From the NCBI RefSeq assembly GCF_988243305.1, contig NZ_OZ547139.1: a DNA stretch of 64,000 nucleotides. One strand, written 5' to 3'. Below, one piece after another: positions 24,001-27,000 of the stretch (the first letter of the stretch is position 1; each line of letters opens with the position of its first letter). Origin of the DNA: a plasmid. The position numbers are program-made.

Positions 24001-27000
24001 AAAAAAAGAACCAGCAACAGCCGAAAAAAAATCACTGGAGTTGACGAAGAGCAGCGCACACAAAATAGCTCTACCGCTCAGAATCCTGACGCTTCAGGTC
24101 CGCAGTATTAACCTTCACCTTTCGCATATAGCATCCAACATTATGATATAGCTCCCGGCCTGACAGGCCGGGCATGGGTGCTGCCTGTTCGTGTAATTGA
24201 GCGTGCATACTTGTCACCGTTCCGGTGACAAGGGCACTCATTGGCCGGAAAAAAATTTCCGGTTCCGCTGCAATGCAGCGCTCAATGGTGCGCACGTTCA
24301 GGACCACGATCCGCCTTAGATCCCGATAAATTTACAGGGAAAGGAGTCCGGGCACGGATATTAAAAAGGGGCGCTTACAGCGCCCCTGAGACAGTTACAG
24401 ATTACATCGCGGCTTCTTTAATCCGCCGGAACACTGCCAACCAGAAACGGAAGTGATCCCATTGCGCTGCGTTCATCGGATGCGACTTTGTTTGCACTCC
24501 GTTTGCGACATCTTCAGCATAGTGTATAATCCACAACGGCATTTTGAACCTCACAATTTAAATTGCCTACCCAGCCGGATTGTTGGCGCAATCCGGCACC
24601 TTTTCTGGATTTCAATGATTCATCACCTCCTTCACATCCAGAACCAAAAAGTTATCGTTAGCGTGACGCTGCCCTACGATGAAAACAGCATCAAAGCGAC
24701 TTACTGCAACTACGTTTAGTTTGCCTGTAACCTCCTTTCCGTTGATGTTGATGGTTTCATAGAGCACCTCGTATTCCTTCGCAGAATCGGAATACTTCTG
24801 CTCTTTCCAGTTTTCTATCTGTGCGATCAGCTCCGGGGCCAGCTGCTGACGAACACGGTTTAGTTCATAGTCACGATTGAGAATCAGGCGGTAATCTTTA
24901 ATTAGCTGGTTGATAACCTTGTTCTCATCCCACTCGGATAGCAGTGGGCACTGTTCGCACTGTATAACACCATCTTTAATCAGTTTTTCTCTGATGCCAT
25001 TAACAACCTGTACAGCACTTAATTCACTGTCGTAGTTCTTTTTAATTTCATCGCTTCCCGGATATACCATAGCGACATCATTAAAATGGCTTACGATTAA
25101 TTCTGACACAATAAGGGTATAAACCTCATAAGGGTATAAGGTCGCCATAATATTCTCTCCACGTTATTTACAGAGCGTTTTAATCAATATCCACTTTTAA
25201 ACTTCACGATTATTATACGTCTAATGAGCCATTGCAGGCAAGAAAAAAATGCCCCTTTTCGAGGCATATTTTTAACCGGTTTACCACTCCCAAACGGTCA
25301 GTTCTGGCACCTGTTCTGCATCCCGGTCAAACCAAATCCAGTCGAACCCGGCACCATTTAACGCGGCTATATTATCCAAAGCACTTGCACTGATCCCCGC
25401 CCTGGCTAATTCCACACGCCATTGTTCAGTAGCAGAAATACGCAATATCCACCCATAGCGATTTTTCTCGATCCAGAACAAACCTTGACCGGACAAGTCA
25501 TCGTTACAGACCTTATCCAGTAGCTCCGCGTCTTCTTTTTTTACATGGCCGGTACTGACGACAGCCACCCGATATTGTTCACTGATATTCATACTCCCCC
25601 CCCTTCAGGGTTGGCGGCCCGCGCCCTGCGGGCCGTTCTAACTCAAATACTCACTGCGGGTAATCATTCATATCCGGGAACGGCGGTTCATCATGATTTT
25701 CAGTGCCTCCCAGACCTTCAGCACTGGTGTTACGTGGCCCAGCTCCCGGCAGCATCTGCATTTCGCCGTTATTATCGATCACAATTTCCTTGTTACTGCG
25801 CATTTTGCCGTCTGTCCCTTGCCATTTGTTATTACGAATGCGCCCGACAAAATACAGCATCATACCCTTTTTGAAGTACTTCCCAGCTGCTTCGGCCTTC
25901 TTTCCAAAAATGACAACATCATGCCATTCCGTTTCTTTTTGCTCCTTCCCTTCGTTGTCGCTGTAGCTGATTTCTGTAGCCAGCGTCAGGCTCGCAATGG
26001 CCGTTCCGTTTGGGGTGTAACGCACTTCTGCATCTTTGCCAGCACGCCCCATCAGAATCACTTTGTTTTCGCCACGTTTCCACATAATACACCTCATATA
26101 TTTGATGTTTATCAGTAAAAAATGGGAGGATTAAGGGGGATTTCTCCCCCTCTTTATCAGTAAAACTTCACGTTCGATTTCAGGGCTTTTTCAAAGTCTT
26201 TTACAAAGGAATTTGCAAAAGTGTAATCACGATGAATAAGCTGTTTTGTTTTAGGATTTCGCCACTCAACCTGCACTGATTCGGCTGAGTATTCGATCAC
26301 CTCGATTTGATTTTTTACACCGAGATAATCAGCAATTGCCATTACGGCATTCACTTTTTTTTGGTCTGCTTCTTTCATTTCAACTCCTTCGCCAGTCGGG
26401 GCGCTACCGCGAAAGACTCAACTGCCTTTCGATGTAATAATTATACGTCTAATGAGCCACTTTATCAACTCATCAGACGTATTTTTTTATTTAATTTTGT
26501 TCAAATATGAACATTTATTGATGCTAAATATCTAACATAATGGCTTGAATTTGGCCTTGTTGTAGGTGATCCGGTAGTCTTTGCACTTCCCGTTCTGCCG
26601 CAGGAACTCCAGCGAGACAACGTTAGCAGCGGCAAAATTGATGCACATAATGCTTTCCAGCGCCTCGAACAGGTCGGCCCCATTGGCAAGCGGAAACCAC
26701 AGATCGTTGTCGCTACCGCTTAATTTTTCATGCAGACAGAAATGCACAGCACGCACGCCGCCAAATTCCGTAACCAGCACCGTATTGCTGGCGCGAATAT
26801 CAGTTAGTGTTAACATTTTTCCCCCTGTCAGTATTGGCCCCCTCGCGGGGGCCGCCGTTTCAGTCAATCGCGCGGTAAATCAAACCGGCTTCGGCGTGCT
26901 GGTCGGCATATAATTTGAGTTTTTCCTGCTGGGTGATCAGCATGTCGCAGATGTGCTGATAGCCTTCTTCATGTGCGTGCCAGATCATGCGGTTCAGGGT

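Follow-up and report, generated by a model that had tools for sequence, protein, structure and literature searches.

The question raised by this locus is what reads a 16-bp palindrome of the form TGTTCA-N4-TGAACA that stands upstream of the orf32-ssb-orf33 operon in the leading region of a plasmid, and what connects it with a second copy at the promoter of a helix-turn-helix (HTH) gene. The DNA analyzed here is a 64,000-nucleotide stretch of contig NZ_OZ547139.1 (assembly GCF_988243305.1), hereafter the window, from an IncL/M conjugative resistance plasmid of the pNDM-HK/pOXA-48/pCTX-M3 type, MOBP and MPF_I. The gene order and naming of orf32-ssb-orf33 follow pOXA-48 (Table S1, PMC12365149). 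We consider it probable that the palindrome is the cognate operator of Orf15, an 82-aa XRE/Cro-C1 HTH protein encoded at 40302-40550 on the minus strand, which would repress transcription from the copy at its own promoter and modulate orf32-ssb-orf33 from the copy in the leading region.

The leading-region copy (site 1, 26498-26513, TGTTCAAATATGAACA, i.e., TGTTCA-AATA-TGAACA) is the proposed remote operator. The copy in the orf13/orf14 divergent promoter region (site 2, 41080-41095, TGTTCATATTTGAACA, i.e., TGTTCA-TATT-TGAACA) is the proposed autoregulatory one. The initial annotation had taken the two for the same type of palindrome and had placed site 1 about 30 bp upstream of the -35 hexamer of a promoter module. 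Both points were borne out: the 16-mers are exact and are reverse complements of each other down to the spacer, and 29 bp were measured between palindrome and -35 hexamer. The plasmid-wide motif scan that had been proposed as a check found only these two exact copies in the 64 kb, compared to none in each of 100 dinucleotide-preserving shuffles. When up to two mismatches were allowed there were 11 matches against 2.7 expected, although seven of the nine near-matches were intragenic and none of the nine was a conserved palindrome. Plasmid NZ_CP032193.1 (100% identical to the window over 25.5-27.5 kb, where pNDM-HK-type records are 99.8% identical) held no additional site with zero or one mismatch outside the extent of the window. 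The regions around the two sites share just the 16-mer and three more bases, and the pair is therefore not a segmental duplication. A LexA (SOS) box, CTGT-N8-ACAG, was rejected as an identification, because the palindrome reads TGT-N10-ACA and lacks the flanking C and G and the required spacing. As a separate observation, each palindrome holds two GTTC/GAAC motifs, the target of Dnd phosphorothioation, and a DndB-like DGQHR protein is encoded in the leading region (31473-32756).

The evidence linking the palindrome to Orf15 is comparative throughout. In the diverged IncL/M-type backbones pKPC-edb7, pKPN43G-qnrS and pL22-4, the site 2 16-mer is exact despite flanks that are only 79.5-88% identical. 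In the latter two, which are IncFII/MPF_I plasmids, orf14 and the nuclease gene of the window operon are absent, and the HTH gene is the first one after the same promoter and palindrome. A protein search retrieved proteins 73-79% identical to Orf15, whose genes lie in at least five unrelated neighborhoods: a leading region of the PsiA/PsiB/ArdA type (L016, L018), a diverged IncL/M-like plasmid (L017, L022), an Erwinia amylovora plasmid in which the HTH gene lies beside methyltransferase and LacI/antiporter cargo (L019, L026), metagenomic contigs in which it lies beside ParA/KorB (L020, L021), and, in L025, a contig that also holds an Mrr_cat gene. Without exception these relatives carry TGTTCA-N4-TGAACA just upstream of the HTH operon, in one case with a single mismatch, and the operator is usually extended to AAATGTTCA-N4-TGAACATTT. 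The chance of an exact site within 400 bp is about 2e-5 per locus, and the HTH gene is the sole neighbor common to all contexts with a TGTTCA operator. The spacers, on the other hand, vary (TATC, ATAG, TATA, CATT, ATAC, GATA), and conserved half-sites around a free spacer are the signature of a protein-binding site.

More distant relatives, with 30-42% identity in protein alignment, were found in IncI-gamma, IncFIB, MOBP-relaxase and Serratia plasmids. Upstream of their own HTH genes they have one or two copies of differing, AT-flanked dyads, namely AAAGTGCA-N5-TGCACTTT, AAAGTGAA-N5-TTCACTTT and AGACACAA-N4-TTGTGTCT, with the half-sites GTGCA-N5-TGCAC, GTGAA-N5-TTCAC and ACACAA-N4-TTGTGT. The recognition helix GI[SG]RTS[LI]VKYE is common to all members with a TGTTCA operator and an intact helix, whereas it differs in the relatives with other dyads. 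Regulator and operator thus co-vary, TGTTCA half-sites being kept at 73% identity and above and other half-sites found at 30-42%. The close relatives P0004, P0006 and P0009 have the same 16-mer as the window, and therefore add nothing on covariation between the two sites. A scan of a contig collection for palindrome plus module returned one more IncL/M plasmid (from Pluralibacter) and one chance match. Taken together, the shared half-sites, the shared helix and the single common gene support what the initial annotation had suggested, that the palindrome belongs to the HTH regulator of the 39-41 kb operon.

The genomic position of the homologous genes deserves separate mention. In other backbones (IncI-gamma, IncFIB, MOBP, Erwinia) the HTH gene lies within the leading region, a few kb from nikA/relaxase, on the strand opposite to the early genes and beside DNA rich in G+C and in hairpins. 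Two copies of the gene's own dyad are often present, their centers 43-67 bp apart. The loci concerned are L007 (2409-2485), L009 (2408-2484), L010 (2397-2486), L016 (9456) and L019 (9862).

Is site 1 itself maintained, or only the operator next to the regulator gene? Six lineages were aligned, comprising the window, pOXA-48 (IncL), pE5_003 and pKPGJ-2d (both typed IncL/M), and two IncFII/MPF_I plasmids. They share an invariant 19-bp block around site 1 (26496-26514, TTTGTTCAAATATGAACAT), while the 3' side (26515-26530) is variable and the T-run on the other side differs in length. The distance from palindrome to -35 is 28-31 bp among lineages. The independent test of the two-site architecture comes from one diverged plasmid, the IncL/M-like contig L022, which spans the interval from HTH operon to relaxase and is about 77% identical to the window in DNA (79% in the HTH protein). 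Its two copies (1460-1475 and 16419-16434) both read TGTTCATATCTGAACA; one stands at the promoter of the HTH operon, and the other precedes the -35 (TTGTCT) of a 72aa-ssb module by 30 bp. None of the 12 half-site bases has changed at either site. In contrast, identity to the window is 43% in the stretch of 29-30 bp between palindrome and -35, 58% in the 60 bp upstream, and 59-60% in the site 2 flanks. A fossil or a chance match would not survive where flanks have diverged to 43-58%, and the leading-region copy, as judged from these alignments, is under purifying selection. We also observed that within each plasmid both sites are the same 16-mer (spacer TATT in the window, TATC in L022), whereas the spacer differs between plasmids, and that the orientation of the asymmetric spacer at one site relative to the other is not alike in the window and L022. 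Matched spacers within a plasmid could reflect a spacer preference, gene conversion or coincidence, these being two data points only.

The arrangement at site 2 is what would be expected of a regulator acting on its own promoter. The palindrome falls in a 140-bp region between orf14 (minus strand) and orf13 (plus strand) and holds the -35 elements of two predicted, divergent promoters. The orf13 promoter (41082-41110, plus strand) was found by promoter scan and has its -35, TTCATA, inside the palindrome, followed by 17 bp and the -10 TATATT. The promoter of the orf14-orf15 operon (41065-41093, minus strand) has its -35, TTCAAA (41093-41088), inside the palindrome as well, followed by 17 bp and the -10 TATAAA (41070-41065). 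The latter was read by eye, and was not listed by the scan, its -10 having no T at position 6. The layout of a -35 within the operator and a 17-bp spacer to TATATT recurs in L022 and L020, and the dyad overlaps the regulator's own promoter in seven contexts besides the window. No second dyad was found at site 2, where a search of 40200-41700 at up to three mismatches returned only weak, chance-level matches.

The operon downstream, all on the minus strand, consists of orf14 (40547-41008; 153 aa, with a signal-peptide-like hydrophobic N-terminus by eye), orf15, orf16 (39722-40309; a 195-aa Mrr_cat nuclease-domain protein whose gene overlaps the end of orf15 by 8 nt), and orf17 and orf18 (38995-39725; 161 aa, with a lipoprotein-like N-terminus by eye, and 82 aa), which end the operon ahead of resD. 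On the other side, orf13 (41149-41625, plus strand) encodes 158 aa. Its 3' end lies inside an IS26 copy (41597-42418), compared to 181 aa in intact relatives, so that one of the three putative operator target units is truncated in the window plasmid.

Orf15 has the features expected of a small DNA-binding protein. It matches Pfam HTH_3 with E = 2e-7 (31.4 bits against a cut-off of 23), and its AlphaFold model is a five-helix Cro/C1 fold with a predicted local distance difference test score (pLDDT) of 88. Fold neighbors of the model are weak (E ≥ 0.01) and include SinR, HipB, Aca2, P2 C and the restriction-modification (R-M) controller proteins C.Kpn2I, C.BclI, C.AhdI and C.Esp1396I, while a sequence search for solved structures near Orf15 gave no significant match (best E = 0.11). 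The predicted fold resembles that of dimeric operator-binding repressors. We considered whether the HTH protein is Orf20 of pOXA-48, an XRE regulator found essential in transposon sequencing (Tn-seq) and CRISPR interference screens. This identification was rejected, since the protein is Orf15 according to Table S1 and the Tn-seq tables, and Orf20 is in the window a separate 159-aa protein (about 34906-35385).

The initial annotation had also put site 1 in the leading region, and the position of the origin agrees. A nic motif of the pCTX-M3 type (ACATCTTGT; source, PMC8125031) lies at 23562-23570 on the plus strand, so that the plus strand is the one transferred and about 24-36 kb is the leading region, first into the recipient. 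All leading-region genes are on the minus strand. They are served by a promoter-plus-5' untranslated region (UTR) module present in at least ten copies (25212-35966), among them those at 26377-26471, 27303-27397, 28278-28372, 29565-29659, 30868-30962, 34351-34445 and 35881-35966. The copies have TTGATT-N17-TATAAT with a strongly conserved promoter spacer (GGCTCATTAGACG) and two 5' UTR hairpins each, and the module gave no match to an Rfam family. The palindrome is present at only one of these modules, outside the repeated unit itself. The proposal that the HTH regulator also controls part of the leading-region regulon therefore stands as to the regulator, for which the comparative link argues, and shrinks as to its reach, the part of the regulon being a single operon.

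That operon is read from the minus strand. Its promoter has the -35 TTGATA (26468-26463), a 17-bp spacer and the -10 TATAAT (26445-26440), 11 of 12 consensus positions for sigma-70. The transcript is predicted to start near 26433, which would put the center of site 1 at about -72.5, and a UP-element-like, A-rich tract at -59 to -47 adjoins the site. The 5' UTR (26379-26439) contains two conserved hairpins and a Shine-Dalgarno sequence, and in L022 one hairpin pair shows a compensatory G:C to C:G change. Downstream lie orf32 (26157-26378; 73 aa), the first gene after site 1, then ssb (25651-26085; a plasmid ssb by annotation) and orf33 (25281-25592; a DUF5983 protein). Upstream, orf31 (26532-26816, minus strand; 94 aa) ends 19 bp before site 1. 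A single-strand promoter of the Frpo/ssi type was rejected here, as the predicted fold of the transferred strand (T-strand) over 26379-26535 consists of four short hairpins that do not join and leaves the -35 in a loop, in place of one long imperfect hairpin that would restore -35 and -10 alike; the module is a conventional duplex promoter. Around its -35 we noted a 12-bp inverted repeat with one mismatch (ACGTCTGATGAG / CTCATTAGACGT; 26447-26483), which is the strongest hairpin of the T-strand fold. This repeat is kept in the IncL/M and IncFII/MPF_I lineages and is absent from L022 and from the other module copies.

These arrangements suggest how Orf15 might work. At site 2, an Orf15 dimer would cover the overlapping -35 hexamers of the back-to-back promoters, and its occupancy would repress its own operon (orf14-orf15-orf16-orf17-orf18) and the divergent orf13. 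At site 1, Orf15 would bind some 72 bp ahead of the predicted transcript start of the strong module promoter, tying expression of orf32-ssb-orf33 to the Orf15 level. We favor down-modulation after establishment, in which bound Orf15 would interfere with the UP-like tract or with the C-terminal domain of the RNA polymerase alpha subunit. Two features tip the balance toward repression: the promoter is near-consensus as it stands, and the A-rich tract directly adjoins the dyad. Binding, dimer stoichiometry and transcription start sites are predicted in this scheme, which is weakest as to whether site 1 serves repression or activation.

Several observations weigh against Orf15 acting at site 1 in this way. 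The site does not overlap the core promoter, and no auxiliary sites or half-sites that could serve for looping were found near it (25600-27000, about 900 bp upstream and 500 bp downstream), so that simple occlusion is excluded. The 28-31 bp range of distances to the -35 argues against strict helical phasing, and the near-consensus promoter itself belongs on this side too. The flanks of site 1 are AAA...AAA, less symmetric than the AAA...TTT of the autoregulatory sites. In the Tn-seq study of pOXA-48, insertions in orf15 were tolerated at seven of seven TA sites, making the gene non-essential, and the effect on conjugation was not significant (log2 fold change 0.8, p = 0.33; PMC12365149); any regulation would thus be dispensable under laboratory conditions. 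Finally, no second remote operator was found in other backbones, neither in 36 kb of an IncI-gamma plasmid nor within 10 kb on either side in L016, L018, L019, L020 and L021, which confines the two-site layout to the IncL/M-like clade.

The serious rival concerns the sign of the effect. Orf15 could be an upstream, class I-type activator or stabilizer of RNA polymerase at the ssb-operon promoter while still acting as a repressor at site 2, a reading that we regard as unlikely although it deserves attention. The position of the site, centered at about -72.5 directly upstream of the A-rich tract, is that of known upstream activators, such as class I CRP sites (-72.5) and Fis site I (-71) with its UP element at rrnB P1. 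In addition, L022 preserves the placement of the site with respect to the -35 though the sequence between them has been replaced, and the lack of a Tn-seq fitness loss on orf15 insertions is what would be expected if only a non-essential operon lost activation. However, activation should be superfluous at a promoter with 11 of 12 consensus positions, the lineages differ by up to 3 bp in the distance, and small XRE proteins of the size of Orf15 are mostly repressors, with no sign of an activating surface in this one.

A lesser rival, and an improbable one, is that site 1 is a roadblock or insulator at which bound Orf15 stops read-through from klcA-orf31 into the ssb operon. No terminator was called between orf31 and the module, and the palindrome starts 19 bp after the orf31 stop codon and outside the core promoter, all of which would suit such a role. 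A roadblock needs no fixed distance to the -35, and yet 28-31 bp are kept, L022 included; moreover, the module has its own strong promoter, so that blocking read-through would change little.

It is slightly less probable still that site 1 has no present function. In that case it would have arisen by chance, as a short copy of site 2, or as a relic from a time when the HTH gene itself stood in the leading region. Because the gene occupies the leading region in other backbones, an operator could indeed have stayed behind when it moved, and no phenotype has been reported for orf15. Against this, the chance expectation is about zero, the shared 16-mer plus three bases is not a segmental duplication, and the site is invariant in six lineages with variable flanks, besides retaining 12 of 12 half-site bases in L022, where adjacent non-coding DNA is 43-58% identical.

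A host factor recognizing the palindrome in place of Orf15 is very improbable. The candidate is the response regulator TorR, whose boxes at torCAD are decamers of the same sequence acting as direct repeats. In each site, one strand contains ATGTTCATAT, which agrees with the tor box consensus (CTGTTCATAT; PMC9239176) at 9 of 10 positions, and the match is kept in L022 (TGTTCATATC). Nevertheless, the two halves of the palindrome are inverted, not direct, and equally conserved; relatives with spacer ATAG or ATAC lose the tor match and keep both half-sites; and palindrome and HTH gene occur together in backbones and hosts that are unrelated, among them Erwinia and metagenomic sources. The least probable reading is a nucleic-acid hairpin, either a terminator or RNA element in an orf31-orf32 transcript or a structure in the incoming single strand: an RNA fold of -5.6 kcal/mol (z = -3.0) and a small hairpin predicted in the single-stranded T-strand speak for it, but the 6-bp stem is rich in A/T and leads into A instead of U on the gene strand (AAAATTAAAT), site 2 lies at a promoter -35 and not in a comparable transcript, there is no Rfam family match, and conserved half-sites around a free spacer without compensatory changes are the pattern of a protein site. 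For the same reasons of stem composition and following sequence (AAAATTAAAT), an intrinsic terminator at 26498-26513 was rejected, and none was called there.

Repression by Orf15 from a cognate operator thus remains our preferred reading, and a broader one can be added as a tentative, rather unlikely possibility. XRE proteins of the Orf15 type might form a widespread, hitherto undescribed family that regulates the establishment phase of conjugative plasmids of the MOBP/MPF_I type (IncI, IncL/M and relatives). In most backbones the HTH gene sits in the leading region and faces away from the early genes. Its transcription could then have to await synthesis of the second strand, and it would act as a timer of double-strand conversion, each lineage having a co-evolved dyad operator. 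In IncL/M the gene could have moved to the maintenance region, leaving or placing a remote operator upstream of orf32-ssb-orf33, where it could act from about -72 by a non-occlusive mechanism.

Some further observations concern the leading region at large. The module copy at 35881-35966 drives orf19-orf20, and Orf20, an Xre-like HTH protein reported essential in pOXA-48, is a candidate general repressor of the module promoters. The nic motif ACATCTTGT falls within the annotated mobA/nikA coding sequence (23154-23681; 175 aa), whose annotated start is probably too far upstream, given that NikA of pCTX-M3 has 105 aa. At about 26540-27500, most close relatives of the pNDM-HK type match 25500-27500 in two pieces with about 870 extra bases between them. 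This extra segment includes a DUF1380 gene and is missing from the window plasmid and NZ_CP032193.1, a difference consistent with gain or loss of a cassette between repeated modules.

IncL/M plasmids (pOXA-48, pNDM-HK, pCTX-M3) are major carriers of carbapenemase and extended-spectrum beta-lactamase genes, and the HTH gene with both palindrome regions occurs in about 1,320 PLSDB records. In the pOXA-48 study, insertions in orf32, ssb and orf33 were enriched about eightfold after conjugation, for a reason left unexplained by the authors, and deletion of orf32 raised transfer 1.87-fold (PMC12365149). Orf15 appears there under the predicted function "HTH-XRE, gene regulation", no target being known, and the pOXA-48 screens consulted propose none (PMC12365149). 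Neither 16-mer was found in the literature text searched. A putative 16-bp operator at two conserved positions now provides a testable target list for Orf15, made of three transcription units, and the pair would link a maintenance-region operon to one leading-region operon. The outcome would add detail to what is known of regulation in this clinically important group of plasmids and leave general concepts unchanged.

How does this system compare with known ones? According to the summary in PMC12365149, the KorC proteins of RK2 (IncP) and RA3 (IncU) are likewise small HTH repressors with a palindromic operator at their own promoter and copies at other backbone modules, among them leading and establishment genes such as klcA. 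The KorC of the window is, however, a different, 88-aa protein (32820-33086) with a different operator sequence, and a KorC site is reported only at the orf24 promoter (PMC12365149). Compared to KorC systems, Orf15 has two sites only, and the remote one is upstream of its target promoter instead of within it. A second parallel, drawn from a secondary account, is the ArdK/CUP system of pKM101 (IncN), in which repeated promoter elements upstream of leading genes, with a 13-nt core bound by ArdK, are served by an autoregulating plasmid repressor (PMC6289460, citing Delver and Belogurov, 1997). The leading region of the window, with its repeated modules, can be likened to it by description. In contrast, the palindrome lies outside the module and at one copy, and the XRE protein proposed to bind it has its gene at a distance of 14 kb.

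R-M controller proteins resemble Orf15 in being XRE HTH proteins of about 80 aa with a palindrome at their own promoter, and the overlap of orf15 with an Mrr_cat nuclease gene adds to the likeness. They differ in that no methyltransferase is annotated in the orf14-orf18 operon, site 2 is a single dyad and not paired C-boxes, the fold matches are weak, and a second site stands in the leading region. Some plasmids without the nuclease gene retain the HTH gene and both palindromes, and HTH gene and palindrome are found without it in pKPN43G-type, Erwinia and other plasmids; the linkage is thus not obligatory. Phage Cro/CI pairs of the XRE type share with Orf15 the HTH_3 domain, the five-helix fold, a 16-22 bp dyad with conserved half-sites and free spacer, and an operator over the regulator's own promoter; what sets Orf15 apart is the maintenance and leading-region setting on a plasmid, the lone remote site at about -72.5, and the lack of a significant match to a solved member. 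As for site 1, a dyad near -72 upstream of an A/T-rich tract at a strong promoter recalls class I CRP sites and the Fis-UP arrangement of rrnB P1. This is a resemblance of layout only. The ssb-operon promoter is near-consensus, the spacing is not strictly fixed, and any contact between Orf15 and RNA polymerase would be hypothetical. It is thus reasonable to think of Orf15 and its palindrome as an uncharacterized XRE repressor-operator pair that appears, from the comparisons made here, to be of an ordinary kind, with an unusual remote site.

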